The translations under genes were made by a program, and so were the position numbers. From a virus, in the UHGV virus genome UHGV-0208508: 14,298 nt of DNA; one strand, given 5' to 3'. This document shows positions 2-14,223 of this stretch, in pieces. The notes below the pieces were generated by a model. That model did no database searches and was not told the origin of the DNA. It saw only the letters and a program-made list of their open reading frames with translations. The number at the start of each line of letters is the position of its first letter. Position 1 is the stretch's first letter.

Positions 2-604
2 TCGAGCAACATGGTGCCGCCGATGTCGTACCGCTTTATGTACGGCCTGACTGAGTATCCGCTGGAAGGCAACAGCGCACTGCTGAAATCTCTTCAGGAC
101 AGCAACATCAACTACATCGGCACCGGCGCCGAAGGTGGACTCAGCAATAAAGTGCTGTTCACCGGCCGCATGCTCGATGGTAACCCGTTCAACTACTGGT
201 ATTCGGTGGCGTGGACGGCGATCAACCTTGAGCTCGACCTGGCGAATGAAATCATCAACGGCTCCAACACGACCGTTAACCCGCTGTACTACGAGCAGAA
301 GGGCATTGACCGCCTGCAGCGTCGCGCTCTGAAAACCATGCGTAATGGCATCAGCTACGGGCTGATCCTCGGTCGCGTCATCGACACGCAACTGACGCAG
401 GAAGATTTCGACACCGAGTATGACAAAGGCACTTACGCCGGCAACGCCGTGATCAACGCCGTGCCGTTCAGTAACTACAACAGCCTGAACCCCTCCGATT
501 ATCAGGAAGGCAAATATAACGGGCTGAGCGCCGTCATGACGCCGCGCCGCGGCTTCGAATCCATCACGTTTAACGTGAACGTAACGAACTTTGTAGGGGC
601 GTAA
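2..604 (+). CDS. Phage tail structural protein, C-terminal portion (possibly tail sheath); reading frame is open to the window edge so the 5' end is probably outside the window
   Basis: The frame has no stop between position 2 and the TAA at 602-604. The ATG at 11 has no ribosome-binding site within the 10 nt available. It lies directly upstream of a tube-sized ORF in a contractile-tail cluster. The sheath assignment is inference from gene order only. Confidence 0.55.
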   Translation, partial: SSNMVPPMSYRFMYGLTEYPLEGNSALLKSLQDSNINYIGTGAEGGLSNKVLFTGRMLDGNPFNYWYSVAWTAINLELDLANEIINGSNTTVNPLYYEQKGIDRLQRRALKTMRNGISYGLILGRVIDTQLTQEDFDTEYDKGTYAGNAVINAVPFSNYNSLNPSDYQEGKYNGLSAVMTPRRGFESITFNVNVTNFVGA

Positions 605-607
605 AAA

Positions 608-1045
608 ATGGCGAACCCATTAGTACCGCAGGGCTTCCTTAACCGCGTACGCGGGGCTCTTTCCGTCACGGACACACCGGCGCTGAACGTTTCTGCGTCG
701 TACCTGGCAAAGGACGGCATTAGCCTGCGTCCGGATGGCCCGGCGACCGACATCATCCCTACGATGACCGGAACCGTCGGCAGCCAGGCGCCGTATCAGC
801 AGGTAACGCTGACCGTGCATCTCCTGAAAACTCAGGGGCTGGGCGAAAGCTACCGGCAACGCTTTTTAACCGACACGTCGCTGGGTGAAATCGTGGTAAC
901 GCCGGATGCAACGACGTTCGGCAATATCACGCTGCTCAACTGCTATCTGGTCAACTTCAACGAGCTGGCTTTCAGCGGGATGGACCCGGCTTTTGTGGTA
1001 ACCATCAGCGGCTATATGGTCACCAACGACAACATGTGGGTGTAA
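608..1045 (+). CDS. Putative tail tube protein (145 aa)
   Basis: ATG at 608 is preceded by an AGGGG Shine-Dalgarno-like sequence and starts 3 nt after the upstream stop. Size and position (after the putative sheath, before the chaperone and tape measure) fit a tube protein. Function is inferred from synteny. Confidence 0.55.
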   Translation: MANPLVPQGFLNRVRGALSVTDTPALNVSASYLAKDGISLRPDGPATDIIPTMTGTVGSQAPYQQVTLTVHLLKTQGLGESYRQRFLTDTSLGEIVVTPDATTFGNITLLNCYLVNFNELAFSGMDPAFVVTISGYMVTNDNMWV

Positions 1046-1048
1046 TGC

Positions 1049-1621
1049 ATGAAAATTGACAAGAAACTGAATCTGGTCACCAACGTTACCCGCGAAGACG
1101 GCTCGATCGTATACCTGCATGTGACGCCATTCCCCTATGAGGTGGTGGAAGAACACTGCATCCTGCTGGGGAACCTGTTCACAAAATTCATCTCGCAGGT
1201 GGGTGGTCTTGGCGCCGCCAGAATCGCCGCGATGATGCTGAGGCAGAGCCTGAAAGCGGAAATCGATAACGGTCGGACAGGTCCGAACATCGTTGATGAA
1301 ATTCAGCGACTGACGGTCGTTATCCATAACGTCGGCGGCCAGTGGAACACCACGCCCCTTGAGATGGCATTCAAACAGGGGATTATCGACCCTGATGAGT
1401 ATCGCGAGGTCGAAGGCGAAGTGGTTTTTTTTATGGTTTCCTCTGCTATTCAGAAGGCAAACCTGATCGCGCCGACAGTGGGAACGGTGATCAAAATGTA
1501 CGATGGGCAACTAACCTCATCGAGCGTTACGGCGTTCCGCGATTCGTTGCAGACGTCGAAGCCGGATACCGATATCCCGACCCAGAATGCCCAGCCGGAA
1601 ACGTCATTTATACCCTCTTAG
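1049..1621 (+). CDS. Putative tail assembly chaperone (190 aa)
   Basis: It sits immediately upstream of the tape-measure gene, the conserved position of tail chaperones, and has an acidic C-terminal region. No frameshift extension ORF was found downstream. Confidence 0.45.
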   Translation: MKIDKKLNLVTNVTREDGSIVYLHVTPFPYEVVEEHCILLGNLFTKFISQVGGLGAARIAAMMLRQSLKAEIDNGRTGPNIVDEIQRLTVVIHNVGGQWNTTPLEMAFKQGIIDPDEYREVEGEVVFFMVSSAIQKANLIAPTVGTVIKMYDGQLTSSSVTAFRDSLQTSKPDTDIPTQNAQPETSFIPS

Positions 1622-1744
1622 ACTGGGCGTCTAATGAGGGATTCTGGCAGGTGATAAGGGAGATCACCGGCGAGGAGTATGCCAGCCCGGCGCAGTACCG
1701 GCAGCGCTACCTTCTCGCCGCGCTCAAAGAAAGAGGTTTCTTCA

Positions 1745-3562
1745 ATGGTAGCTAAGTCGATCGTCGACATTGACGTAAATGACGACAAGTTTGTCGCGTT
1801 TATGGAAAGGTTTCGCGAGTACCAGAGCGCGCTGGATGATTTACCGGAAGCCTGGCGAGTGGCTGCCGTTGGCATTGGCGAAAGCAGCAAGCAGACCGAA
1901 AAGGCCAAAGGTGAGGCGAAGGAGTTAGGCGCGGAGTTTAACGCCGTGGCCGAGGCCATTCTGACCATCAACAGCGGTATCGATCGGCTCAATACCAACC
2001 TGGAAGACTCGAAGAAAAAGCAGGGCGAATTCAACAAAAGCACCCGATCTGCGAAGGGCTTCCTCAGCGATGCGACGAAAGACGCTAAATCGCTGGCAGG
2101 TCACATCAAGGAAGCGACGGCCAGCCTTCTGTCCTGGGGTGGTATTGTCGGGATATTTACCGGCGTCCTTGGCATTGGCGGCCTGTTTGGCATCAACCGC
2201 CTGGCTGCCACCACCGGTGCCCAGCGGTTTACTTCTCTCGGGCTCGGGACGAGCATCGGCGCGCTGGATTCCACCGCCATAAACTACCAGAAAGCGCTGG
2301 GTAATCCGGCGGGGACGCTGGGCGCTATCCGCGATTCCCAGATGGACCTGTCGAAGCGCTGGACGTTTCAGGCTATGGGGATTAACAATCCCGACCAGGA
2401 CCCGGCCAAACTGCTCCCGCAGATGATCCGTAATGCGCGCGATATTTTCGTGCAGAACGGCAGCACGCTGCAGGGCGCACAGGCGCACGGCCTGACAAAC
2501 TTCTTTACGCTGGACGACCTGAACCGCTTCAAAAACATGAGCGATGAGGAGATCACCGCCATGGAGAAGCGCGCGCAGCAGGATGCGCGTATGTTGCAAA
2601 TTACCGACCAGCAGGCGCGTCAGTGGCAGGATTTTAACGTCCAGCTCGATTACAGCAGCCAGAGCATCAGAAACACGTTTGTGCGCGGCCTGGGTCCTCT
2701 CACACCTCAACTGAGAAAACTGTCTGATGCGCTGTCAGGCGCGATCGATACCGTCCTGAAATCCCCCGAACTCGGCAAGTGGATTGATGCGCTTGCCGGC
2801 GGCATTGAGCGATTCGGTAATTACCTCGCTTCTCCTGAATTTTCCACAGATGTAAGCAACTTTATGGACAAAGTAGAGAAAATGGGAAATCTAATTGGCA
2901 AGGTTATTGATTGGGTAACAGGGAAAGCGAGTATCTCTACTGCGGATATATCATCCGGGTCAACGATGTTGAGCCCAAGCACCATCATCGATCCGAAAAC
3001 GGGAAAATCCTATACTCCTGGAAGCAATGATGACCCGCATGTATGGGGCTGGCTCAAGGGTGTTAGGCGCTTCTTTGAAGATGGAACCGTTAAAGCTGTT
3101 GATCCCACACCTGCAAATACTTCCGACAGAAACAGGACTATTGCAGATCGATTTAATAATCCGGGAAATCTGCGGTGGGCTGAAGGATACAGCAGCGAGA
3201 ATACGAGAAGCGGTAAATTTGCCGTCTTCCCAACGCTGGATGAAGGCGTACTGGCGGCGACAAAGCAACTTCAAATGTATGGCGCTAAAGGAATAAATAC
3301 GGTAGGAGATATTGCAAGAAAATGGGCTCCTCCTAAGGAAAATAATACCGCTGAGTATATTCGGCATGTGGTTAAAACTACTGGATTTAATGAGAATCAG
3401 AAACTGAATCTCAATGATCCTCAGGTTATCGCGAAACTCATTTCTGCTATATCTCAAAAAGAAGGGGCTGGTAGCAGAGTTTCTGAGAGCACAGTCATTC
3501 AGATCTATAACAATACCGGCGGGAATGCAGTGGTAACTTCAGCGCAATTGGGGGCGAGGTAA
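1745..3562 (+). CDS. Tail tape measure protein (about 605 aa from ATG 1745; an alternative in-frame ATG lies at 1679)
   Basis: Strong ribosome-binding site AAGAAAGAGG before ATG 1745. It is the longest ORF in the tail module, with an N-terminal helical/charged region, a Gly-rich hydrophobic segment (LSWGGIVGIFTGVLGIGGLFGI), and a Q/A/R-rich helical central part. It sits between the chaperone and baseplate genes. Confidence 0.8.
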   Translation: MVAKSIVDIDVNDDKFVAFMERFREYQSALDDLPEAWRVAAVGIGESSKQTEKAKGEAKELGAEFNAVAEAILTINSGIDRLNTNLEDSKKKQGEFNKSTRSAKGFLSDATKDAKSLAGHIKEATASLLSWGGIVGIFTGVLGIGGLFGINRLAATTGAQRFTSLGLGTSIGALDSTAINYQKALGNPAGTLGAIRDSQMDLSKRWTFQAMGINNPDQDPAKLLPQMIRNARDIFVQNGSTLQGAQAHGLTNFFTLDDLNRFKNMSDEEITAMEKRAQQDARMLQITDQQARQWQDFNVQLDYSSQSIRNTFVRGLGPLTPQLRKLSDALSGAIDTVLKSPELGKWIDALAGGIERFGNYLASPEFSTDVSNFMDKVEKMGNLIGKVIDWVTGKASISTADISSGSTMLSPSTIIDPKTGKSYTPGSNDDPHVWGWLKGVRRFFEDGTVKAVDPTPANTSDRNRTIADRFNNPGNLRWAEGYSSENTRSGKFAVFPTLDEGVLAATKQLQMYGAKGINTVGDIARKWAPPKENNTAEYIRHVVKTTGFNENQKLNLNDPQVIAKLISAISQKEGAGSRVSESTVIQIYNNTGGNAVVTSAQLGAR

Positions 3563-4272
3563 TGGGATTCACACGTGAAATGTATAAGCTGGGTTTTGAA
3601 ATATCCCCAGTAATACTTTGCGGAGGGATAGCGCAGGCCATTCCTGGAGGAATGCTCCCGATCGTCGCTTTGACACAGAGCGCGAGCTTTGTTACGGGGC
3701 TGCTTGGAGGAGCCATAAACCTAACCGATCTGGATAAATATTTCTGCCACTGGCGACCGGTTCAGGGCGCCACAATGGTTGATTATGAAATTGCCAGATA
3801 CCCTTTCGCTAACCAGGTAGTAGCTGCGAACGCCTTGCTTGCTCAGCCTTTGCGCGTTTCGTTGGTAATGGAGGCCCCGGTCAATGAAAACACCGGGGCG
3901 ATGACAAAGCTCGTCACTATGAGTGCTTTGCAGTCTGTCCTTCAGGCGCATTCTAACTTAGGCGGCACGTTTATCGTCGCCACCCCATCCGTTATCTATA
4001 GCAACTGCATTTTGCGTGTAGTGAGGGACATTACCTCTGGTAACGATCCATTACCACAGCGTTCATGGATATGGGATTTCGAGCAGCCACTGATAACCGA
4101 TAATGGTGCAGAGCAGGCCGTGAACAATTTTTTAAACAAGATTGGCGCCGGGGATATGGTAACCGACCCATCCTGGACTAATACCGCCAATGCTCTTGGC
4201 AACACGCCTCTCGGGAGCTCTGTATCGGAAGCAATAACCGGCCTATTGGGTAAGTTGGGGGTAGGGCCATGA
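3562..4272 (+). CDS. Tail/baseplate assembly protein, uncharacterized (236 aa)
   Basis: Start ATG overlaps the tape-measure stop (TAATG) and is preceded by GGGGCGAGG. It is co-directional within the tail operon. No recognisable motif. Confidence 0.65.
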   Translation: MGFTREMYKLGFEISPVILCGGIAQAIPGGMLPIVALTQSASFVTGLLGGAINLTDLDKYFCHWRPVQGATMVDYEIARYPFANQVVAANALLAQPLRVSLVMEAPVNENTGAMTKLVTMSALQSVLQAHSNLGGTFIVATPSVIYSNCILRVVRDITSGNDPLPQRSWIWDFEQPLITDNGAEQAVNNFLNKIGAGDMVTDPSWTNTANALGNTPLGSSVSEAITGLLGKLGVGP

Positions 4273-4547
4273 CAACCCAGAATTATCCGTTTACCGGCAA
4301 TGATCGTCAAAGCATGACATTTACACCGATCCTTGATGGCACCGTCTATAACTGCCAGGTTAAATGGAACATTGCCGGGCTGAGGTGGTATGTCCTCATT
4401 ACAGATGGCTCTGGGAATACCATTCTAAATACCCCGCTCGTTGGCTCCGAGCTTAACGGTGGAATAAATATTATCTCCGGAGTGTTTAATTCGTCCTCCA
4501 TGTACTGGCGCGAACAGAATGGACTGATTGAGGTAAACAGTTCATGA
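4269..4547 (+). CDS. Small tail/baseplate-associated protein (92 aa), uncharacterized
   Basis: ATGA start/stop overlap with the upstream gene, a GGGGGTAGGG ribosome-binding site, and the stop overlaps the next start. Translational coupling pattern is typical of phage structural operons. Confidence 0.6.
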   Translation: MTTQNYPFTGNDRQSMTFTPILDGTVYNCQVKWNIAGLRWYVLITDGSGNTILNTPLVGSELNGGINIISGVFNSSSMYWREQNGLIEVNSS

Positions 4548-5581
4548 GATATTATGATATTGAGATAACCATTCCTGCTGAAGGTGCCTCTCCGGAAAGA
4601 ACGATAAAATACAGTAGCCATAAGAACGGAGTTTACAACCCCGGCGCCCTGATGATTGAGTTTGATATCCTCAGGTACGGTGAATCGACTCCCCAGGGCG
4701 AAACTCACCTGACCATCTGGGGTATTGGCCCAAAAGAAATGCAGCAGGCTCGCCAGAATTTTTTTGGCAAAAAAATTAAAATATTCCTTGGGATGAAAGA
4801 CGGGCTGCCATTGGCTGGCAAGGTTACCTCACCAAAACTGGTATTGGATGGCGTGATAAATCAGGTCTTTGGTAACTGGCAGGGTATTGAGTTACGACTT
4901 GACTTCATAATCGTGGTTGGTCCTGTCCAGAACGTGCCAAATAACAAACCCGTACCCCTTCCTTTAACCTTTGACTGGAAGGAGGGGCAGAAGCTTTCTG
5001 TAGCCCTCACGCAGTGTTTTATGAACATCAGAGGGTATACGTTCAATATCAACATAAGCGACCGGCTAATCCTTAATCATTACCGGGGGCTGTTTTGTGA
5101 TGACATTGTCACCCTGGCCAAGGACCTTAATGCTTTTTCACGTTCCAGAATTCGCGATAGCGGGTACTCTGGTGTAGAGATCGCAATAGTGAATGGTAAT
5201 GAGATCCGGGTATGGGATAACGATTATGATAACCACCCGGATAAGACTTCTGTTTCCAGCGCCGTAGCCAGAAGCAACAGCCCAACCCAAATAGATTTCA
5301 AGGATTTGATAGGGCAGCCGACATGGGTGGCATTTAACACAATCAGCATGGCGTGCGTAATGCGCGGTGATATTCAGGTTGGCGATCACATCCTGATGCC
5401 TAAAAAAAGCACTCCGTTGATACAGGCCTCTTCGTACTCTCAGTATCGAGAAGACTCTGCCTTTACTGGCGACTTTATTGTGAACTCCGTTCGCCTGTTA
5501 GGGAATAGCAGGCAACCAACGGCAGAGGCATGGGTAACAATTATTGAGGCTTCCCCTTTCATTAAGGCAGGTAGTGCATGA
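4544..5581 (+). CDS. Putative baseplate hub protein (345 aa)
   Basis: GAGGT ribosome-binding site. It lies immediately upstream of the spike gene, the position of the hub (P2 gpD / Mu gp44-type) in contractile-tail clusters. The assignment is positional inference. Confidence 0.6.
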   Translation: MRYYDIEITIPAEGASPERTIKYSSHKNGVYNPGALMIEFDILRYGESTPQGETHLTIWGIGPKEMQQARQNFFGKKIKIFLGMKDGLPLAGKVTSPKLVLDGVINQVFGNWQGIELRLDFIIVVGPVQNVPNNKPVPLPLTFDWKEGQKLSVALTQCFMNIRGYTFNINISDRLILNHYRGLFCDDIVTLAKDLNAFSRSRIRDSGYSGVEIAIVNGNEIRVWDNDYDNHPDKTSVSSAVARSNSPTQIDFKDLIGQPTWVAFNTISMACVMRGDIQVGDHILMPKKSTPLIQASSYSQYREDSAFTGDFIVNSVRLLGNSRQPTAEAWVTIIEASPFIKAGSA

Positions 5582-6294
5582 GCATCGACAACAAGCTTAA
5601 TTTTGCCTCAAGCATGAACAGGTTTACTGAAAGAAAGATTGAAAATGCGCTTCAAAAATCAGGGAAAGTTCTTCCGGCGAGCGTGGTTAAGCAAACTGGG
5701 AATATGATCACCGTCTCCTTCGAGCTAAGGGATATCCCATATGTTTTGCCGCAAGTGACTATCCCCTTATTTGGCCCTCAATATATTCGTTACCCTATGC
5801 AGCCGGGAGATAAGGGGATTGTTATCCCCGCAGATACTTACATTGGCGGCGTTAGCGGTCAGGGAGGCGGCATTGCAGATATGACTCCGCCAGCAAACTT
5901 AAGCGCCCTCGTTTTCTTGCCGATCAGTAATACCGAGTGGCAGGGTGTCGACGGACAGGTGGTGACGGTATACGGGCCGGAGGGTGTAACGCTGCGCGAC
6001 AGTGGCAGCAACACGACGTTTCTCCTGAAGCCTGACAGCATCGCCATTTCCACACCTGACAGCTTCACCGTCACCGTTGGCGGGACAGTTTTCTCACTGA
6101 CGGGTAGCAAATGGAGCCTTTCAGGCCAGGCTGGTCACCTGCAGGATTCAGTGGCCAGTACTAGCCCTGCAATCATGCACGCCGGGTGGCAGTCGCTTCT
6201 GACCTGGCTTAACAGCCATGAACATTCAAACGGCAACGATGGAAATGATACCGGGGGGCCGACTTCAACGTTTAACGGGAGTATCACCGAGTGA
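5578..6294 (+). CDS. Baseplate central spike protein, gpV-like (238 aa)
   Basis: ATGA overlap with the upstream gene. Gly-rich beta-type sequence with a C-terminal His-x-His motif (SHEHSNGNDGNDTGG), reminiscent of the metal-binding tip of P2 gpV-type spikes. It sits just before W-like and J-like genes. Confidence 0.65.
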   Translation: MSIDNKLNFASSMNRFTERKIENALQKSGKVLPASVVKQTGNMITVSFELRDIPYVLPQVTIPLFGPQYIRYPMQPGDKGIVIPADTYIGGVSGQGGGIADMTPPANLSALVFLPISNTEWQGVDGQVVTVYGPEGVTLRDSGSNTTFLLKPDSIAISTPDSFTVTVGGTVFSLTGSKWSLSGQAGHLQDSVASTSPAIMHAGWQSLLTWLNSHEHSNGNDGNDTGGPTSTFNGSITE

Positions 6295-6623
6295 GAACCT
6301 ATGGCCGAAACTCTGAGGGGAAGTGGGTCCTGGTGGAAACCGACGAAAATGGGTTTAATGACTTGGTGTATTTAACCACCCTGATCCAGAATCTGAAACT
6401 GGCGCCGCAGGAGTCACCCTTTTATGCGAACAACGGAATCCCGGCCGCCGGGTCGGTGATCCAGCAAATCCTGCCGACGTATTACGTAAACCGTATTCAG
6501 AAACAGTTCAGCCAGTATTTTTCCTCGCTGCAGATTGCACTGATCAGCGACGACCCGCCTGTTTATAACATCTCGGCAATCACAAATGCAGGTTCAAAAA
6601 TAATTACACAGGTGGCCGTATGA
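6291..6623 (+). CDS. Putative baseplate wedge protein (W/gp25-like, 110 aa)
   Basis: GTG start overlapping the upstream TGA (GTGA). Size and position directly upstream of the J-like gene fit the V-W-J-I order of P2/Mu-type baseplates. Inference from synteny and size. Confidence 0.55.
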   Translation: MRTYGRNSEGKWVLVETDENGFNDLVYLTTLIQNLKLAPQESPFYANNGIPAAGSVIQQILPTYYVNRIQKQFSQYFSSLQIALISDDPPVYNISAITNAGSKIITQVAV

Positions 6624-8038
6624 GCGATTTACCAGTCAGCTATACGTCAGCAGGCCCGGTTCCTCTGACGCCGGAAGAGCTACGAGCACAGCTCGTTTCT
6701 CAGGCAATTGCGCTATCTCCGGGACTCACAACTGATTTGCCTGGATCTCTGATTGAGGACGTGGCCAGTACCGATGTCGGCGCGCTCATCGTTTGTGATC
6801 AAGCAAGGGTTGACCTGATTAACTCGGTGGGGCCACTAAAGGCTAACCTGGCCATGCTGGAGCTTCTCGCACAGCAGGCTGGTATTCCTGGGCAGAAAAC
6901 GGCTGGCACAACAACAGTCCCGGTTCAGTTTTCCGGCCCCGCGGGATTTGTTATCCCACAGGGGTTTATTGTTTCTGATGGGACCTATACCTATTCAGTC
7001 AGTGATGCGACGATTATCTCGTCGTCTGGAGTATCTGCCAGCGTATCATGCGAGGGAACGGAGACCGGGACCTGGGCGGTGCCGGTAAATACGGTTAACC
7101 AGATCATATCCAGTCTACCGTCTGACGTCACCATCACCTGCACCAACCCGATCGCCGGCACTCCGGGTGCTGACCCGGAAACGAACTATCAGTTTCGTGA
7201 TCGCGTATGGCAGGCGCAGATGGCCACCGTTCAGGGATATCCTGGATTTATCCGGCAATATCTCACCAGCCTTGATAACGTGCAGGCGCGCCTGGTTTCT
7301 GTCATTCAGGACGGGGATAAATGGATAGTCATGTGTGCCGGCGGTGATATTTACGATATTGCTGGCGCGCTCTATAAGTCTGCGGGGGATATCAGCCGGC
7401 TGAAAGGGTGTTCACTGAACGTAACGGGAATCACGAATGCAAATCCTGGTGTCGTCAGCACAGACCTGACTCATGGTTACACTGACGGCCAGGTTATCCG
7501 GATCACTGGCGTTACCGGGATGACGGGTATTAATGACGTCCCTCTGACCGTGACGGTACTGTCTCCTCACACGTTTTCCATCGGGATTGACACCACGTCA
7601 TCCGGGACCTGGGGAGGCGGCGGCGAGGTGACACCGAACGTCAGAAACAATACCGTGACGGTGAATGACTGGCCTGATAACTACGTGATCCCGTTCGTGA
7701 CGCCATTGCTGCAGCGGGTCACTGTGACGTATCAGTGGGGGACAGAAAGTGTTAACTACCTGACAGATGCCACGGTCGCCTCTCTGGTCTCGGCGCCTAC
7801 GATTCAGTATGTGAACGGCATATTCGCCGGGAAACCGCTGAACGTTAACAACCTGAAAGACGCATTCTTACAGGCGATTAACTCGACAATCGACATGGGG
7901 CTGATCAGCACTTTAAACGTCGTGGTCACCATCAATGGTGTGATAACACCACCGGATGCCGGGACGAATATCATCAGCGGCGATAAGTTCAGTTATTTTT
8001 ATATCGCGTCGGATGGCGTGATCGTAACAGGGGCGTAG
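6620..8038 (+). CDS. Baseplate J-like protein (472 aa)
   Basis: ATGA overlap with the upstream gene and an AGGTGG ribosome-binding site. A large protein between the W-like and I-like genes, which is the conserved position of baseplate J / gp6-type wedge proteins. Confidence 0.7.
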   Translation: MSDLPVSYTSAGPVPLTPEELRAQLVSQAIALSPGLTTDLPGSLIEDVASTDVGALIVCDQARVDLINSVGPLKANLAMLELLAQQAGIPGQKTAGTTTVPVQFSGPAGFVIPQGFIVSDGTYTYSVSDATIISSSGVSASVSCEGTETGTWAVPVNTVNQIISSLPSDVTITCTNPIAGTPGADPETNYQFRDRVWQAQMATVQGYPGFIRQYLTSLDNVQARLVSVIQDGDKWIVMCAGGDIYDIAGALYKSAGDISRLKGCSLNVTGITNANPGVVSTDLTHGYTDGQVIRITGVTGMTGINDVPLTVTVLSPHTFSIGIDTTSSGTWGGGGEVTPNVRNNTVTVNDWPDNYVIPFVTPLLQRVTVTYQWGTESVNYLTDATVASLVSAPTIQYVNGIFAGKPLNVNNLKDAFLQAINSTIDMGLISTLNVVVTINGVITPPDAGTNIISGDKFSYFYIASDGVIVTGA

Positions 8039-8039
8039 C

Positions 8040-8744
8040 ATGCTGGACGATATCATCCGGTCGTATATGTATACGCAATACAACGACGATGAAAATCTGC
8101 GGGCGTTTTTTACTGCGTATAACTCGATGGCGCAGGGCATTTATGACTGGATGGTTAATGCCAACCTGCCGATTTTCATCGGTGACTACAACACCGGAGA
8201 TCAGCTCCGGTGGATTGCCCATGGCATCTATGGCGTTTTGCCGCCGGTGATTTCCAGCAGCGATCAGCAGGAGATAGGCCCATATAACACCTTCGAATTT
8301 AACCAACTGGCATTCAATGAATACCGGGTGATTGACCAGTCGAACCAGGTTGTTGTCTCCGATGACCTTTTTAAGCGGATCATGACCTGGAATTTTTATA
8401 AAGGTGACGGCTTCTATTTCTCTATCCCATGGATAAAACGGCGTATTCTGCGGTTCCTGTTGGGAGTGAATGGCACCGATATCCTCAATGACCAGCGGTG
8501 GAGTATATCGATCCAGTTTGTGGATGGCGGGATCGTGATATCCATCTATAAGGGGCGCCGCAGGTTCACGCGGAGCGCTATCTACAACGCATCGGCCTAT
8601 AACTCCAGGAAGTACAACCAGAAGGACACGGCCTTTGTGATCACCGAGGATTTCGAGTTCGCTATTTTCTTCAAGCAGGCCATGGATAGCGGCCTGCTTC
8701 ACATGCCGTTTTACCAGTCAGTCACGGTTGAGATATTTGACTAG
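8040..8744 (+). CDS. Baseplate/tail protein I-like (234 aa)
   Basis: Starts 2 nt after the J-like stop with an AGGGGCG ribosome-binding site. Position between J-like and the tail-fiber genes matches P2 gpI / Mu gp48-type proteins. Confidence 0.6.
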   Translation: MLDDIIRSYMYTQYNDDENLRAFFTAYNSMAQGIYDWMVNANLPIFIGDYNTGDQLRWIAHGIYGVLPPVISSSDQQEIGPYNTFEFNQLAFNEYRVIDQSNQVVVSDDLFKRIMTWNFYKGDGFYFSIPWIKRRILRFLLGVNGTDILNDQRWSISIQFVDGGIVISIYKGRRRFTRSAIYNASAYNSRKYNQKDTAFVITEDFEFAIFFKQAMDSGLLHMPFYQSVTVEIFD

Positions 8745-8996
8745 GTTTTTATCTCGATTATCTATTGTTATATACAAATGAGATTTAACGCACTGACAAA
8801 TTATATGCAGCACAACTATTGATAAAAACAAAATGGATGACATTTTTATCATATCTATTGGCGGCATTCCTTGCTGAAAAAGAAATCCAAATAAAATAGT
8901 AAGCAAGGCGCAAGAAAGGAGTATTAATAAAGTAGATAGCGTTCCTAAAAGTATTTTTAAAATAGCAATAGAAGCATTATTCATAATATTCACCAT
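8718..8996 (-). CDS. Hypothetical small hydrophobic (two predicted transmembrane segments) protein encoded antisense in an AT-rich island; may be an artefact of AT-rich composition
   Basis: 92-codon minus-strand ORF, strongly hydrophobic (ASIAILKILLGTLSTLLILLSCALLTILFGFLF and MSSILFLSIVVLHIICQCV). No convincing Shine-Dalgarno sequence at the first ATG (a weak GGTG precedes the second ATG). AT-rich DNA readily yields Ile/Leu/Phe-rich ORFs by chance. Confidence 0.25.
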   Translation of the reverse strand: MVNIMNNASIAILKILLGTLSTLLILLSCALLTILFGFLFQQGMPPIDMIKMSSILFLSIVVLHIICQCVKSHLYITIDNRDKNLVKYLNRD

Positions 8997-9002
8997 TTAA
9001 AA

Positions 9003-9026
9003 GGCCGCGCTTGCGGTTTTTTTATT
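9003..9026 (+). terminator. Putative rho-independent terminator-like hairpin with T-tract (CCGC-GCTT-GCGG followed by TTTTTTT), flanked upstream by an A-run so possibly bidirectional
   Basis: Short GC stem (4-5 bp) with a tetraloop, directly followed by 7 T residues on the plus strand. It lies about 20 nt upstream of the first fiber gene's ribosome-binding site. Confidence 0.4.
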
Positions 9027-9045
9027 GCCTAATCCCGGAGGATAC

Positions 9046-11790
9046 ATGGCACTAACCCTTTTGGCTACAAACAACGCAGAAAGCACGCTGGCTTCTGCTA
9101 TCAGCGCAACCGACACGTCGCTGATCGTTAGCGCTGGAACTGGTGCCGAGTTCCCTGATGCTGTGGCAGGCGAGAGCTACTTTAAACTCACGCTCACCGA
9201 TGCCGCCACCGGCTCACAGGTTGAGATCGTGAACGTGACAGCTAAGGCTGGGGACATCTTCACGATTGAACGTGCGCAAGAAGGAACGCTGGCGCGTTCG
9301 TGGGCGGCCAACGACATGGTTGCCAACATGATGACGGCGGATACGCTGAACATTATCGCTCAATATGCCCAGCAGGCAGCTGCATCAGCAGCACAGGCTG
9401 CTGAGTATGCAGATAACGCTTCTGACTACGCACAGAATAAGTTCACGTTCTTTAAGACCGCCAGCGATCCTGATGGCACTATTGCCGGGCTGGCCGCAAC
9501 GACTGAAGGGCAGTCATTCTGGGTAGCCCAAGGTCCAGATGCGCTTTCTGCTGCATGGCAGTATCAGAATGTTGCGGGTGTAGCCGTGTTACAGGCTAAG
9601 CAGCCAGGAACAGCGGCTATAACCGGGACAATCCGCGAATTTCCCACGCTGGAGGCGGCACAGGCCGACGCCGATGCTGGCAATATTCCTACAGGTTCAA
9701 ATGCGTATTATCGAAGCGCTGACGACACAACTCTTGCGATTGAGGTAATCAACAACGCCGGTACGTTGACAGCAACCGGAAGAAAAATTCCAGCGTATTC
9801 CGCTTTGCGCAGAGGCAACATTTTATTCGACGCATTTAATGAATATTCAGCTGTTGATCCTAAGTTTGGTGCCTGGGACTGGTATCGCGGAGCTACTGTT
9901 ACATTTAGTACTACTGATGCCAACATTCCGTTACCGACTCCAGTGGCACAGTATTCCGGCGTATGGTCTGCAGATAAATATTATGACCTTGCCCGCCTGC
10001 CTGTAAGGGTAGGCGATCAATTAACCTTTTCTGTGCTGGCATGGTTTCAGGATGCCGGTGCTAAGTTCCATATATTCTGGATGTCCGCGAGCGGTACGAT
10101 AATATCCTCAAAATCCGTAACTGGACTGGCTTCAGGAATTAATGTTCCAGTTTTAACAGATATTGTTCCTGCTGGGGCGTCGTATGTACGAATTCGCGTA
10201 GAAAACACGACAACAGGATCGTTCAAGGTGGGAGCCTATGCGTCCGCTGTTGGTTCTATTCAGCCTGAATTTATTCGTGCCGCTCCTGACAAGACCTATA
10301 TGTCAGCGATTGTCTCTTCAGGCATCGCTGGCCTAACCTCGCGCGTGGATGCGTTGCAGGGGGCCATTTCTGTTGGGTATCCGTATGCAGCGACCTGGCA
10401 GGTTGGTAAATTTGTAAACCCAAATACCGGGGAAATAACAGATAATGCTGCGCTGAACTGTACCATAATTCCTCATAGTGACGGGGACGGTTGGCTGGTT
10501 ACTGCTCTCGTTACTGGATCGGCCACAGCTCTGGCTGTGTATATGAATGCGGCTGGCACAGTGCTGGGAGTGGAGGGGCGCGGAACAACAACGCCGCAGC
10601 AGTATACGAATTACCGCCTTAACGTTCCGTCGGGAACCACGCAGATCGGCATAACCGGTCGTAATTCTGCTCCAATGTCTGTTAAGAAATTGGCCGTTGT
10701 TGAAACTGCTACTGTACTGGCTAGCATCGATTCTCTCGATTCACGTGTACAGAAAATAGAAGATTCGCTGGTTTACGATTTCGTTCAGCAGGATGTCCCT
10801 ATTACGTCTGGAGCATATATAAACCGATCTACCGGTGCCGTCGTAACAAACTCTGCATTTGATTGTTCGATATTTGACTATACAACAGGAGATCGCTGGA
10901 AAGTTACGGCAAGGGTGAATGGAACGAGCGTATCACTCGCTGTATATTTTAATTCAGTGGGCACTGTCATTGGGACGGAAGGCGATGGTACATCAGCATC
11001 TGTGGATTACATTGATTATGAGCTGACGCCACCAACCGGCACTGCCAGGATAGGCATCACAACACGGGTTGCACTTCCTATAGTTGCTAAAAAATATGTC
11101 ATTGTTCCCAGCGGAAGTACAGTAAGTCCGTGGTCGGGAAAAATTATTGATGTAATGGGAGACAGCAACGTAGCCTATAACAAATGGCAACCGCTGGTTG
11201 CTAGTGAACTTGGTTGTTCTTTCCTGAACCATGGTGTTGGTGGTTCAAAGATCGCCAAACCCGATAGTTCACCGACACAAATCAGCATGTGTGACGACGC
11301 CAGGATTAATGCCCTCGATACGACGGCCACTGCCTGGATTTGTGGCCCGTGGGGGACAAATGACTGGGCGCAAAATATACCCATTGGAACTATTAGTGAC
11401 ACTGTGAATACCACGGTCTATGGTGCGCTAGTCATAATTGCACAAAAGCTTAGGGCGAGAGCACCAACCAAGCCTATTTTTTGGGTTACTCCATTCAACG
11501 GAGATTATGAAACTGGGAGGACTAGTTCATGGGTTGATGGGGAAACTAACCAATATGGCAGGGTGTCTGATTATTCTGCTGCAATTCGAGCTGTAGCTCT
11601 GCGATATGGCTTCCCATTGATTGATTTAAATGCAGATTGTGGGTGGACAAAATTTAATAGTAGTTATTTTTTGCTAACGGAAGGTGATACTAACCCTTCT
11701 CATATTCATTTAAATGATAGTGCTGGTCCAGCCAGAATTTCGGAGTTGGTAATAGATCGTTTAACGGCCCTTGCGAATTTGGCCAACTAG
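9046..11790 (+). CDS. Tail fiber / tailspike protein with C-terminal SGNH/GDSL-family hydrolase (esterase-like) domain (about 914 aa from ATG 9046)
   Basis: GGAGGA ribosome-binding site before ATG 9046. N-terminal about 105 aa is homologous to the N-terminus of the downstream fiber. An Ala/Gln-rich probable coiled-coil segment follows, then beta-rich repeats. The C-terminus carries GDS (VMGDSNV), a conserved Gly block (NHGVGGSK), GxND (WGTNDW) and a His block (NPSHIHLND). Confidence 0.85.
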   Translation: MALTLLATNNAESTLASAISATDTSLIVSAGTGAEFPDAVAGESYFKLTLTDAATGSQVEIVNVTAKAGDIFTIERAQEGTLARSWAANDMVANMMTADTLNIIAQYAQQAAASAAQAAEYADNASDYAQNKFTFFKTASDPDGTIAGLAATTEGQSFWVAQGPDALSAAWQYQNVAGVAVLQAKQPGTAAITGTIREFPTLEAAQADADAGNIPTGSNAYYRSADDTTLAIEVINNAGTLTATGRKIPAYSALRRGNILFDAFNEYSAVDPKFGAWDWYRGATVTFSTTDANIPLPTPVAQYSGVWSADKYYDLARLPVRVGDQLTFSVLAWFQDAGAKFHIFWMSASGTIISSKSVTGLASGINVPVLTDIVPAGASYVRIRVENTTTGSFKVGAYASAVGSIQPEFIRAAPDKTYMSAIVSSGIAGLTSRVDALQGAISVGYPYAATWQVGKFVNPNTGEITDNAALNCTIIPHSDGDGWLVTALVTGSATALAVYMNAAGTVLGVEGRGTTTPQQYTNYRLNVPSGTTQIGITGRNSAPMSVKKLAVVETATVLASIDSLDSRVQKIEDSLVYDFVQQDVPITSGAYINRSTGAVVTNSAFDCSIFDYTTGDRWKVTARVNGTSVSLAVYFNSVGTVIGTEGDGTSASVDYIDYELTPPTGTARIGITTRVALPIVAKKYVIVPSGSTVSPWSGKIIDVMGDSNVAYNKWQPLVASELGCSFLNHGVGGSKIAKPDSSPTQISMCDDARINALDTTATAWICGPWGTNDWAQNIPIGTISDTVNTTVYGALVIIAQKLRARAPTKPIFWVTPFNGDYETGRTSSWVDGETNQYGRVSDYSAAIRAVALRYGFPLIDLNADCGWTKFNSSYFLLTEGDTNPSHIHLNDSAGPARISELVIDRLTALANLAN
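10405..11106 (+). repeat. Two tandem homologous domain repeats of about 100 codons each inside the first fiber gene (about 10405-10701 and 10810-11106), diverged at nucleotide level
   Basis: Protein-level alignment by eye: GWLVTALVTGSATALAVYMNAAGTVLGVEGRGTTTPQQYTNYRLNVPSGTTQIGITGR versus RWKVTARVNGTSVSLAVYFNSVGTVIGTEGDGTSASVDYIDYELTPPTGTARIGITTR. Confidence 0.6.
11131..11787 (+). other. SGNH/GDSL hydrolase-like catalytic domain at the C-terminus of the first fiber (predicted catalytic Ser codon at 11164-11166)
   Basis: Ordered motif blocks typical of SGNH hydrolases: GDS near the domain start, a conserved Gly, GxND, and a C-terminal Asp/His block. Assigned from motif order only, with no profile search. 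Confidence 0.6.
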
Positions 11791-11865
11791 ATATTTATTG
11801 TCTTTGAAGTGAGGCTATTTCTGCGATGTTTATTCTGATAATTCCATTATTTAACAGGGGTATAT

Positions 11866-12897
11866 ATGGCGCTTAAGCTATTAGCCAATAATAACGCAAA
11901 GAGTGTTCTCGCTGCGGGTATTAGCGCGTCCGCTACCGTTATTACCGTGGGTACCGGAGCGGGGGCTTTATTCCCTTCCCCTGTATCTGGACAGAGTTAT
12001 TTCAAATTAACGATAACCGACGCGGCCACGAAAACAATTTCTGAAATTATGCACGTCACGTCTGTATCCGGTGACGTGATGACAGTAATTCGTGGTCAGG
12101 AAGGAACTACGGCACGCGTATGGTCAACAAATGACATTGTCGCGAATCTAATGACAGCCGGATCATTGTTATCGTTCCTGCAGATCAGTAATAACCTGTC
12201 AGAAATTAAAGATGCCGGTGATGATGCGGTAAATGAAGCCCGTTATAACCTCGGAATATCTGATTCCTCTGGTTTTGTCGGGCGTTCACTTGGCGCTCCA
12301 AAAGTTTTCTATGCAAACGGAACCTATACGCGATCTCCTCTGGCCCGTTATGCAAAAGTAACGTTGACCGGTGCCGGTGGCGGCGGTGGCGGCTGCCAGG
12401 CATCTAATAACACCGAAACCTTTTCCGGTGCCGGCGGCGGCGCGGGTGCGACCATTATCGTATGGGTTGACCTGTCTGCTGCCAGTTCTTACGCGATTAC
12501 TGTCGGCAAGGGTGGTAAGGGCGGAGTTGGCGCAGTAAGTGGTGCGGATGGTGGTGCTACCTCGTTTGCCAGCCTGTTCTCAGCTCCTGGCGGGAAAGGC
12601 GGCGTGAAGTCAGGCGTGTCCAATACCGCCGGCGGCGCCGGAGGTACGGCGGCGACCGGAGATATCAGGATCAACGGTGGTACCGGCTCAGATGGACAGA
12701 CAGGCTCAAGCCTTCTGACGGGAAACGGCGGGGCGTCGTATTTTGGCGGCGGTGGCCGGGCGGGTTCTCAGGCCGGTATTGCTGGCGCAGCTCCCGGATC
12801 CGGTGGTGGTGGCGCGTATGACCTTGGGTTTACCGGTACGGCATTTACCGGTGGTGATGGTGCTACTGGCATGGCGATCGTGGAAGAATTCGCGTAA
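11866..12897 (+). CDS. Second tail fiber / receptor-binding protein with glycine-rich C-terminal domain (343 aa)
   Basis: AGGGG ribosome-binding site before ATG 11866. N-terminal about 105 aa aligns with the first fiber N-terminus (MALxLLAxNNAxSxLAxxISAxxT...SYFKLTxTDAAT...QEGTxAR.W..ND.VAN.MTA). The C-terminal about 180 aa are dominated by GG/GGG/GGGG motifs separated by short variable segments. Confidence 0.8.
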   Translation: MALKLLANNNAKSVLAAGISASATVITVGTGAGALFPSPVSGQSYFKLTITDAATKTISEIMHVTSVSGDVMTVIRGQEGTTARVWSTNDIVANLMTAGSLLSFLQISNNLSEIKDAGDDAVNEARYNLGISDSSGFVGRSLGAPKVFYANGTYTRSPLARYAKVTLTGAGGGGGGCQASNNTETFSGAGGGAGATIIVWVDLSAASSYAITVGKGGKGGVGAVSGADGGATSFASLFSAPGGKGGVKSGVSNTAGGAGGTAATGDIRINGGTGSDGQTGSSLLTGNGGASYFGGGGRAGSQAGIAGAAPGSGGGGAYDLGFTGTAFTGGDGATGMAIVEEFA

Positions 12898-12901
12898 TGG
12901 C

Positions 12902-14062
12902 TTACACTCCTGCACGACCATCGATGTAATCAGCCCACCACTGCATCATTTCTCTGCGCTTATCTAGATACTGAGCATGGTTGTAAATACCGCGCACAGA
13001 TCCGCCGTTGGCATGTGCCAGCTGCACTTCAATAGCGTCAGCAGGCCATTCGTGCTCGTTCATAATCGTGCTGAATTCATGCCTGAATCCGTGACCGCTT
13101 TCCAGACCCTCATAGCCGATTTGTTTGATCACAAGCAGTACCGCATTCTCGCAGATTGGCTTCTTCTTATCGTTGCGCCCGGCAAAAACAAACTCTGAGA
13201 CTGGTTTGGTGATTGAGCTTAGCGTAGTGAGAAGTTCAACCACCTGGTCTGACATAGGAACAACATGAATCTTGCGGCCCTTCATCACACTGGCGTCGAT
13301 AGTGATAATCCTGTTTTCAAAATCGACGTTCTTCCATAGCATGGAACGAAGCTCTTTTGTTCTGAGGGCTGTGTAGCGTAAAACTTTGGTCGCAATGAGC
13401 GATACGATACTTCCTGAAAATGTTGCCAGTGCTTTGTTGAATGCAGGGATCTGGTCTGCTGGGAGAAACGGGAAGTTCTTCTTGCGGTATCCCTTCATGG
13501 CGTCAGCAAGGTCAGGTGCCGGGTTATATTTAGCCCTTCCGGTGACAATAGCGTAACGGAAAACCTCGCCGCATCTTCTGCGTGCTTTGTTGGCTCGCTC
13601 CATTGCACCGCGATCTTCAAATCTGCGGATTACTTCCAGCAGTTGCATCGGCTCAATATCCTGAATTTCAAGGCCGCCGATGATAGGTAAAATGTCGTCA
13701 TCAAACATTTTTGCAAGTTCAGTTGCATACCCTACTGACCATACTTGCTTCTTGTGCTCGTACCATTCTTTGTAAATCGCACTAAAGGAATTGTTGTTAG
13801 ACGAAGCCTTTTTCGCTTTTACCGGATCGATGCCAACCGAGATGTCTTTCCTCGCGGTCCATGCTTTATCTCTTGCCTCCTGCAAAGTCATAAGCGGATA
13901 TTTTCCGACGGTCAGGATTTTCTCCTTACCGTCAATCTTGTAGCGAAGCTGCCATACCTTTTTCCCTGACACAGGGACATAAAGGTACAGGCCATTACCA
14001 TCGAGTAGGCGGTATGGTTTTTCTTTCGGCTTTGCTGCTTCAATCTGCTTAACGGTGAGCAT
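12902..14062 (-). CDS. Phage integrase, tyrosine recombinase of the P4/IntS-like family (386 aa from the ATG at 14060-14062; an in-frame GTG at 14096-14098 would add 12 codons)
   Basis: 398-codon minus-strand ORF with C-terminal catalytic-domain signatures (HGFRHEF for His-x-x-Arg, and RGIYNHAQY with the presumptive catalytic Tyr) and an N-terminal arm-type DNA-binding region. It lies about 125-160 bp from a co-oriented tRNA gene, the canonical integrase-tRNA arrangement. Confidence 0.9.
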   Translation of the reverse strand: MLTVKQIEAAKPKEKPYRLLDGNGLYLYVPVSGKKVWQLRYKIDGKEKILTVGKYPLMTLQEARDKAWTARKDISVGIDPVKAKKASSNNNSFSAIYKEWYEHKKQVWSVGYATELAKMFDDDILPIIGGLEIQDIEPMQLLEVIRRFEDRGAMERANKARRRCGEVFRYAIVTGRAKYNPAPDLADAMKGYRKKNFPFLPADQIPAFNKALATFSGSIVSLIATKVLRYTALRTKELRSMLWKNVDFENRIITIDASVMKGRKIHVVPMSDQVVELLTTLSSITKPVSEFVFAGRNDKKKPICENAVLLVIKQIGYEGLESGHGFRHEFSTIMNEHEWPADAIEVQLAHANGGSVRGIYNHAQYLDKRREMMQWWADYIDGRAGV

Positions 14063-14223
14063 GGGTAAAAATCCGGTGGGTAAAATTATTTTATCCACTT
14101 TTTACCCGTCATGGAGTGCGGCTGTCAACGATCTGACGCGAACCATTACGAACTGTGAATCTACGGAAGGCTTGATATTCAGGGGATTTTGCGGACTGGT
14201 ACGGATGGGAGCGAACTGATAAA

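Follow-up and report, generated by a model that had tools for sequence, protein, structure and literature searches.

In the genome record of phage P22, a plus-strand terminator named ant separates the variable immI region (sieA, mnt, arc, sar and ant) from the tailspike gene 9. Transcripts of P22 from Pant are said to stop at this terminator (t_ant) while late transcripts modified by gp23 pass it, a result reportedly obtained by Berget, Poteete and Sauer in 1983. The stretch of P22 DNA 5' of gene 9 is noted to influence how frequently late transcription gets as far as this gene (PMC2629481). Genes inserted in this manner are known as morons, and their architecture is a promoter-gene-terminator cassette placed between two conserved late genes (Juhala et al. 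2000, cited in PMC2629481). Terminators inside late operons were described as common in the phage L paper, and the roles proposed for them were partial termination, or the stopping of transcription which has not undergone gp23/gp24 antitermination (10.1101/2020.10.05.325894). It is established that Q-modified polymerase ignores intrinsic terminators over many kilobases (restated in PMC3851460).

The locus analyzed here is the junction between the baseplate and tail fiber genes of the UHGV virus genome UHGV-0208508. The window, i.e. the whole stretch of DNA that was analyzed, is 14,298 nt long. Its large ORFs from 11 to 12897 are all on the plus strand and are tightly packed, with short or overlapping junctions. 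They follow the order of a tape-measure-sized ORF (627 aa), Baseplate_J, a 234-aa baseplate protein and two fiber genes. The 234-aa protein is encoded at the position of a Mu gp48 / DUF2612-type baseplate wedge protein, and its homologue in Pantoea phage PdC23 is annotated as DUF2612. The gap between the baseplate gene and the first fiber gene is 301 nt. In fiber gene 1, a conserved adaptor domain at the N-terminus is combined with a GDSL/SGNH hydrolase domain at the C-terminus. Fiber gene 2 shares the same N-terminal domain and has a Gly-rich C-terminal domain. No hairpin was found before fiber gene 2 (11866), and among the scored candidates of the window no terminator was found between the fiber genes and the integrase gene. 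The coordinates of all the features are given in the table.

Features of the baseplate-fiber junction and its surroundings in the window. Positions are those of the window.
Feature	Position	Strand	Evidence
Last baseplate gene, 234 aa, phrog_8212	8040-8744	+	PHROG match, E 7e-90
Putative small two-TM membrane-protein gene, 88 aa	8718-8984	-	ORF and homologues at the same site
AT-rich island, variable cargo slot	8745-9004		GC 26-35% against 50-58% in the flanks
A-tract 5' of the stem, can pair with the U-tract	8999-9002	+	AA or AAA in relatives
Putative terminator hairpin core, CCGC-GCUU-GCGG	9005-9016	+	6 pairs including G-U pairs; covariation in relatives
U-tract, seven T	9017-9023	+	T5-T8 in relatives; core columns invariant when aligned
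Conserved fiber 5' leader ATTGCCTAATCCCGGAGGATAC, with RBS GGAGG at 9037-9041	9024-9045	+	Near-invariant alignment columns
Tail fiber/spike gene 1, 914 aa	9046-11790	+	PF13472; tail fiber PHROGs
Fiber gene 2, 343 aa	11866-12897	+	PF21722; PHROG matches
Integrase gene, convergent with the fiber genes	12902-14098	-	Follows fiber gene 2

An earlier note, made from the window alone, had pointed to a GC hairpin followed by seven T residues just before the fiber genes. The element is present at 9005-9023. The plus strand from 8999 to 9029 reads AAAA GG CCGC GCTT GCGG TTTTTTT ATTGCC. The core stem contains only four G-C pairs, formed by 9005-9008 with 9013-9016, and closes a GCUU loop. The helix can grow to 10 pairs if 9003-9004 pair with 9017-9018 (two G-U) and 8999-9002 with 9019-9022 (four A-U). 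The distance of about 20 nt to the ribosome-binding site given in that note is approximate, as 13 nt separate the end of the T-run from the RBS and 22 nt separate it from the fiber ATG (9046-9048). The 12-nt hairpin core was predicted by RNAfold to have a free energy of -5.0 kcal/mol, and the 16-nt form GGCCGCGCUUGCGGUU folds with five pairs, one of them G-U, at -7.7 kcal/mol. The 10-pair form reaches -11.3 kcal/mol with a z-score of -1.4, and 16 of 200 dinucleotide shuffles fold equally well. By itself the fold of the window hairpin is statistically unremarkable. By the calculation of free energy which the note had called for, the stem is weak when taken alone. With four G-C pairs and this z-score, it is borderline for the usual range of terminator stems (about 5-14 pairs and a stability clearly below background). 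As the stem is short and its extended form is matched by 8% of the shuffles, the efficiency of termination may be low.

The combination of hairpin and T-run is more distinctive. Eleven T-runs of six or more residues are found on the two strands of the window, and only the one at 9017-9023 has a stable hairpin directly 5' of it. A d'Aubenton-Carafa-type score, whose absolute d values are indicative only here and below, placed 9005-9023 first among the terminator candidates of both strands (d about 18.8, against 1.4 for the runner-up). No minus-strand candidate in the window scored above 0. The segment 9005-9023 thus carries a GC-rich stem-loop with an immediate U-tract on the transcribed strand, as is expected of an intrinsic terminator. 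A generic promoter/terminator consensus scan of the window did not list this site, probably because the maximal extension of the stem uses up the T-run. That scan gave fewer matches in the window than in shuffled sequences, and so no weight was given to it in either direction. A second hairpin, at 9027-9052, which would sequester the RBS, was seen in the single-sequence fold; it is absent from the RNAalifold consensus of relatives and was dropped.

No sigma-70-like promoter was found by consensus scan in 8745-9046 on either strand, in agreement with the earlier note, which by eye had seen no convincing one. The same holds for the interval between the terminator and the gene, as the 22 nt from the T-run to the ATG contain no promoter-like site and leave no room for one, just as had been claimed. 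Since the hairpin is too near the fiber RBS for a promoter, expression of the fiber genes would depend on read-through or antitermination. A scan and inspection by eye of 8985-9140 found no promoter for the minus-strand membrane-protein gene of the island.

To compare this junction with its relatives, 92 loci were gathered via the 234-aa baseplate protein together with the annotated Klebsiella phages Chronis and RothC, and the fiber start was located in all of them. A GC hairpin followed by at least T5 and ending not more than 35 nt from the fiber ATG was found in 59 of the 72 non-identical related junctions. The spacing from the T-run to the ATG is 21-24 nt in the relatives, and 13 nt in the lineage of L007 and L091. 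The identity of the baseplate protein among the hairpin-bearing junctions ranges from 100% down to 52%, and Yersinia phage vB_YenM_21.09 is included among them. In Pantoea phage PdC23, the baseplate and fiber genes overlap and the hairpin element is absent. At least 12 distinct stem-loops are found among the relatives. Their stems include CCGC/GCGG, CCCGC/GCGGG, CCCAC/GTGGG, CCTCGC/GCGGGG, CCCCGC/GCGGGG, CCGCC/GGCGG, CCCACC/GGTGGG and CAGC/GCTG, and their loops include UUCG, CUCG, UCCG, GAAU, AGAU, ACA and CAUUGA.

With stems of 4-6 bp and loops of 3-6 nt, the MAFFT alignments of the hairpins gave no common register, and the pairs were therefore tabulated in a loop-anchored frame and cross-checked with RNAalifold. 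In this frame, 93.5% of the cells pair, against 37-55% when the 3' partner column is slid. Changes on both sides of a pair were found at four of the six positions, and none of 2000 column shuffles matched the observed pairing, a statistic which overstates the significance as the frame was chosen with the hairpin known and the sequences are related. An independent MAFFT alignment, analyzed with RNAalifold, gave the same hairpin and no other structure, with compensatory changes in three of the five pairs. The hairpin is conserved both in position and in structure at the baseplate-fiber junction, with compensatory changes in its stem.

The strength of the hairpin differs across the lineages, from -5 to -12 kcal/mol. 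Most relatives possess 5-6 G-C pairs on a C(UUCG)G loop, with -8 to -12 kcal/mol and d of about 19-43. The window type and the type of relative L044 have four G-C pairs and d of about 18-21, and are the weakest stems of the family. Between these two types, all eight stem bases and a long T-run (T7-T8) are kept while two of the four loop bases and the 5' flank differ, which argues against pure decay. By raw counts from junctions of shared ancestry, the hairpin is absent from 7 of the 17 junctions in which a minus-strand membrane-protein gene abuts the fiber gene, and from 6 of the 55 others. Its absence from those seven means that the phage is viable without the element. One possibility for the weak or lost hairpins beside the minus-strand gene is a conflict between a strong terminator and the drive of that gene.

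The sequence upstream of the hairpin is highly variable. The slot between the baseplate gene and the fiber gene ranges in the relatives from 67-69 nt to 2977 nt and holds at least nine unrelated cargo families, mostly small envelope-targeted proteins. These include the small membrane protein on the minus strand, several signal-peptide or lipoprotein ORFs on the plus strand, a secreted protein of 133-149 aa on the minus strand, and cassettes of an Arc/Mnt-like repressor with an antirepressor. Plus-strand cargo genes have an extra terminator of their own. The cargo-free junctions of L079-L085, which measure 67-69 nt, also carry the hairpin. An identical hairpin (CCCGCTTCGGCGGG) stands behind four unrelated cargo types with slots of 534, 597, 636 and 830/855 nt, and it is precisely at the 5' foot of the stem that the similarity between cargo types ends. 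The presence of the hairpin in the shortest junctions and its identity behind unrelated cargos show that it is resident in the junction and that the cargo was inserted upstream of it. The idea that the terminator was brought in by a moron was rejected, as the cargo gene of the window is on the opposite strand, the hairpin is 5' of its start, and the hairpin is present without cargo. An insertion of 2.2 kb in L067 has a hairpin-plus-T6 element on either side.

In the window, the slot is occupied by the gene of a putative small membrane protein. Its mechanical ORF reaches 8996 and has an overlap of 27 nt with the 3' end of the baseplate gene. Homologues with 27-51% identity are found at the same place in L044, L004, L087, L061, L067 and L006. 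All of them have two hydrophobic segments, the motif IC.C...L....D.R does not vary among them, and their frame is intact. The MNN start common to the homologues points to 8984 as the true ATG. The protein has no match to a Pfam, PHROG or PADLOC family; the protein database holds one cluster, 95% identical to it, and homology search left it unnamed. These comparisons indicate that the AT-rich island is a small membrane-protein cargo (moron) gene on the minus strand, with the hairpin situated 5' of its start.

The regions upstream of the structural genes were fetched via the terminase, using contigs with exactly the island and hairpin of the window. The evidence on Q thus comes from contigs which share the junction, and the Q gene, the late promoter and the qut site lie outside the window. 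Two contigs with the window-identical island and hairpin, L187 and L180, encode a Q protein of 207 aa (PF03589 / phrog_127), whose N-terminus presumably matches that of lambda Q. A third such contig, L178, has a Q of PF06323, and other relatives have a Q of PF06530. In these contigs, the Q gene is placed between nin-type genes and the lysis/terminase genes. RothC, whose baseplate protein is 98% identical to that of the window, is a lambdoid temperate phage with cI, cII, replication genes, nin genes, Q (of family PF06323), tRNAs and lysis genes, followed by the terminase, head, tail and fiber genes and the integrase. In RothC, comparable terminators on the plus strand follow the major capsid gene and precede the fiber gene. 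The phage of the window is best explained as lambdoid and temperate, with a contractile tail of the Mu-like type and the junction inside its late operon.

The element is probably a plus-strand intrinsic terminator resident at the baseplate-fiber junction, which Q-modified polymerase reads through and which keeps the fiber genes silent in the lysogen. From the conserved hairpin and its surroundings we infer the termination activity, the Q read-through and the insulating role. The presence of Q genes in contigs with the exact junction of the window makes Q-dependent read-through the best explanation for fiber expression, and gives support by inference to the antitermination or read-through that the earlier note had expected. 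Polymerase without Q modification, which may come from promoters of upstream cargo genes or from spurious sites in the AT-rich island, would stop at the U-tract. The fiber genes would thereby stay silent in the lysogen, even with upstream cargo genes expressed. During lytic growth, Q-modified polymerase from the late promoter would pass the terminator, and the fiber genes, having no promoter of their own, would be expressed as the far end of the late operon. We propose that the insulation which the terminator gives to the fiber genes lets the gap upstream of it accept insertions, and that this gap has thereby become a hot spot for cargo (moron) genes.

Some of the same observations fit other readings. 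The hairpin may act as an attenuator at which a fraction of late transcription stops, even when Q-modified, so that fiber mRNA is kept below baseplate mRNA; its purpose would then be control of dosage in the lytic cycle and not silencing in the lysogen. The region 5' of gene 9 in P22 is thought to set how often polymerases from the late promoter reach the tailspike gene (PMC2629481, citing Adams, Brown and Casjens 1985), partial termination is listed among the possible roles in the phage L paper (10.1101/2020.10.05.325894), and the strength of the hairpin varies by lineage from -5 to -12 kcal/mol. Against such attenuation stand the known disregard of Q-modified polymerase for intrinsic terminators over many kilobases (PMC3851460) and the hairpin-free junctions of otherwise similar phages. 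The sequence data are compatible with both this reading and Q read-through and do not separate them, and we consider attenuation rather unlikely. Somewhat less likely still is that the 4-bp copy of the window is a degenerating ancestral terminator of little activity, kept by descent and by constraints on the fiber leader. The window and L044 types have the weakest stems of the family, the hairpin is often weak or lost where a minus-strand gene abuts the fiber gene (7/17 lacking it against 6/55), and the window fold is no better than those of shuffles. However, neither the window type nor the diverged L044 type has lost the stem or the T7-T8 run, despite their changed loop and 5' flank, the helix is extended by the A-tract and G-U pairs, and the element is still the top-scoring terminator candidate in the window. 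The hairpin and T-run might also be a preferred breakpoint for the exchange of cargo and fiber modules, with any terminator activity incidental. The end of cargo-type similarity exactly at the 5' foot of the stem, the two hairpin-plus-T6 elements around the 2.2-kb insertion in L067 and a similar element at the edge of the P22 ant moron fit such a boundary. Compensatory changes, however, denote selection on pairing in RNA or DNA and not on a recombination sequence, and the T-run is always on the fiber side and on the plus strand, which a terminator needs and a breakpoint does not. A role as boundary is compatible with the terminator reading; as the explanation of the element it is very unlikely.

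Two further readings, both taken up from the earlier note, are the least probable of all. According to the first of them, a small RNA transcribed from the plus strand of the island would have its 3' end at the hairpin; such an RNA could be an antisense regulator of the membrane-protein gene similar to a type I toxin system or to P22 sar. No gene on the same strand ends near the terminator (the stop of the baseplate gene is 260 nt upstream), a small hydrophobic protein is encoded on the opposite strand of the island, and the equivalent region of P22 has an antisense RNA (sar). Against this, 8745-9016 contains no plus-strand promoter-like site, the hairpin is conserved where the upstream sequence is unrelated or absent, and the window and L044 show no additional nucleotide conservation beyond the stem. 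A search of Rfam with 8500-9300 gave only sub-threshold matches (csRNA, 25.7 bits against a gathering threshold of 57; isrK, 15.5 against 50), which are driven by the terminator and are at chance level. With a minus-strand protein gene in the island as well, a small RNA ending here is highly improbable and the claim was set aside. Hardly better is an action on the minus strand, either as the bidirectional terminator suggested in the same note, stopping antisense transcription from the integrase side, or as a 5'-UTR hairpin in the mRNA of the membrane protein. AAAA stands upstream of the stem in the window, the integrase gene is convergent with the fiber genes and no terminator lies in between, and the small gene starts about 20 nt from the hairpin with no promoter found for it. 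On that strand, however, the RNA reads CCGC-AAGC-GCGG followed by CCUUUUAAAU, which has no usable U-tract, and the stem has 4 bp, with the G-U pairs turned into C-A mismatches. The fold has -6.5 kcal/mol with a z-score of -0.09, the T-score is 1.18 and d is about -55. Relatives have just AA or AAA upstream of the stem, and the hairpin is kept in junctions without a minus-strand gene. The bidirectional claim thus found no support, and both forms of minus-strand action are extremely unlikely.

These results bear on the annotation of this prophage family. The fiber genes of the Klebsiella/Raoultella-type family should be annotated as the distal part of a Q-dependent late operon and not as a separate unit, and the AT-rich island as a minus-strand cargo gene and not as a small-RNA locus. 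By the comparison of junctions, a single fixed terminator stands at the downstream border of a very active hot spot for insertion, with at least nine cargo families including immI-like antirepressor cassettes. Such a hot spot is useful for finding genes of lysogenic conversion or superinfection exclusion.

Among the described systems, the ant terminator of P22 is alike in being a plus-strand intrinsic terminator at the distal edge of a variable cargo region 5' of a receptor-binding gene (PMC2629481). The junction in P22 is likewise at the end of a Q-type (gp23-dependent) late operon. The immI region also has its counterparts, as relatives of the window carry Arc/Mnt-like repressors and antirepressors (P22_AR_N, Bro-N, ORF6N and Rha) in the slot, and a small minus-strand membrane-protein gene takes the position of P22 sieA in them. 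The P22 element (CCCAGC-TTCG-GCTGGG, T7 and ATGCCCAAAAT) is identical at 29 of 34 positions to the variant of L076 (CCTCGC-TTCG-GCGGGG, T6 and ATTGCCCAAAAT), a figure which does not demonstrate homology with t_ant, since thousands of generic phage terminators match. A BLAST search of this short GC-hairpin/UUCG/T-run element against phage genomes gave partial matches in 2150 records. Two of the differences between the L076 and P22 elements form a compensatory pair. P22 differs in having the terminator 168 nt before the start of gene 9, against 22 nt before the fiber ATG here. Its virion is that of a podovirus with a tailspike, whereas here the fibers belong to a contractile tail of the Mu-like type. 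No immI genes are present in the window itself.

The lambdoid terminators read through under Q, i.e. lambda tR' with those downstream of it and the terminators of phage L and P22, resemble the element in their intrinsic geometry, their location on the strand of the late genes and the lack of a downstream promoter. Phages carrying the element have Q genes from three Pfam families. The RothC terminator after the major capsid gene has its parallel in phage L (10.1101/2020.10.05.325894). The element differs from them in that the late promoter with its qut site and Q lie beyond the window, and its read-through is deduced from related contigs. With morons the locus shares a low-GC insertion between genes which in some relatives are 67-69 nt apart, and the many alternative cargos. 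It differs from them in that the hairpin is not the terminator of the cargo gene of the window, which is on the opposite strand, and is present without cargo; in addition, no promoter was recognised for this cargo gene.

It is possible, though doubtful, that the hairpin is an ancient resident insulator which served as a shared landing pad for cargo expressed in the lysogen, with the layout conserved or repeatedly exchanged between P22-like podoviruses and Mu-tailed lambdoid myoviruses. If so, this layout would consist of the minus-strand membrane-protein gene, the Arc/Mnt-antirepressor immunity cassette, the terminator and the fiber or tailspike gene, and the terminator would be what makes this site of the late operon permissive for insertions. 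A terminator before the receptor-binding gene in a Q-type late operon has its precedent in P22. The present locus does not reveal a new mechanism, but extends the P22 pattern of a moron 5' of the tailspike gene to a different type of tail.

The junction that runs from the stop codon of the baseplate gene to the fiber start codon was found to be a cargo hot spot in the related loci L001-L094, occupied by at least nine unrelated cargo families. Signal-peptide or lipoprotein ORFs predominate among these cargos, and none of them matched any PADLOC defence model. The cargo of the window is a conserved gene for a small membrane protein of 88 aa with two transmembrane segments. It overlaps the 3' end of the baseplate gene by 27 nt, and neither a promoter nor a terminator was recognisable for it. 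The protein matched no known family. In four of the related loci, immI-like cassettes combine Arc/Mnt-type repressors (PF03869) with antirepressors (P22_AR_N, Bro-N, ORF6N, Rha). The 2.2-kb insertion in one of them, L067, is flanked on each side by a hairpin-plus-T6 element; the arrangement suggests that the insertion entered 3' of a terminator already resident there and that the second terminator was either carried in with it or arose by duplication.

Coordinates of features in the window and in related loci
Feature	Source	Position (nt)	Strand
Baseplate_J protein	window	6620-8038	
88-aa membrane-protein gene	window	8718-8984	minus
Adaptor domain, fiber gene 1	window	9046-9375	
Adaptor domain, fiber gene 2	window	11866-12190	
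Second fiber gene stop codon	window	12895-12897	
Convergent integrase gene stop	window	12902-12904	
Junction	L001	3146-3975	
Junction	L002	3146-3679	
Junction	L024	4706-5341	
Junction	L003	4706-5302	
immI-like cassette, immediately 5' of fiber gene	L067	5055-7172	
immI-like cassette, same position	L069	5442-7118	
immI-like cassette, same position	L076	5466-7608	
immI-like cassette, same position	L073	2827-4965	
CCCACC-ATCA-GGTGGG plus T6	L067	5047-5069	
CCTCGC-CTCG-GCGGGG plus T6	L067	7219-7240	
Strong late-region terminator	L095 (RothC)	8356-8383	plus
Strong late-region terminator	L095 (RothC)	46285-46302	plus

Klebsiella phage RothC possesses strong terminators within its late region, one after the lysis genes and the other, with a 12-bp stem of -18.7 kcal/mol, after the gene for the major capsid protein, which fits a late operon that is antitermination-dependent throughout. 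At the far end of the window's fiber genes, the stops of the second fiber gene and the integrase gene are separated by only 4 nt, leaving no space for an attachment site between the two genes. As no terminator was found there (12895-12904) on either strand, transcription of the integrase gene would continue into the fiber genes in antisense orientation.

An N-terminal adaptor domain, about 100 aa long, is common to both fiber proteins and occurs in 153 records from many unrelated phage groups (phages of Pseudomonas, Ralstonia, Burkholderia and Escherichia). At the C-terminal end, the first fiber protein carries a GDSL/SGNH hydrolase domain and the second a Gly-rich one. Residues 275-338 of the Baseplate_J protein also match the Pfam model PF16190 for the FCCH domain of ubiquitin-E1 (E 4e-14), probably representing a small beta-barrel insertion.

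In phage P22, sieA occupies the position held by the 88-aa membrane-protein gene in the window; on this analogy, a role in superinfection exclusion is therefore our guess for its product. The immI-like cassettes have the same layout as the P22 ant moron but are present in phages with a Mu-like tail.
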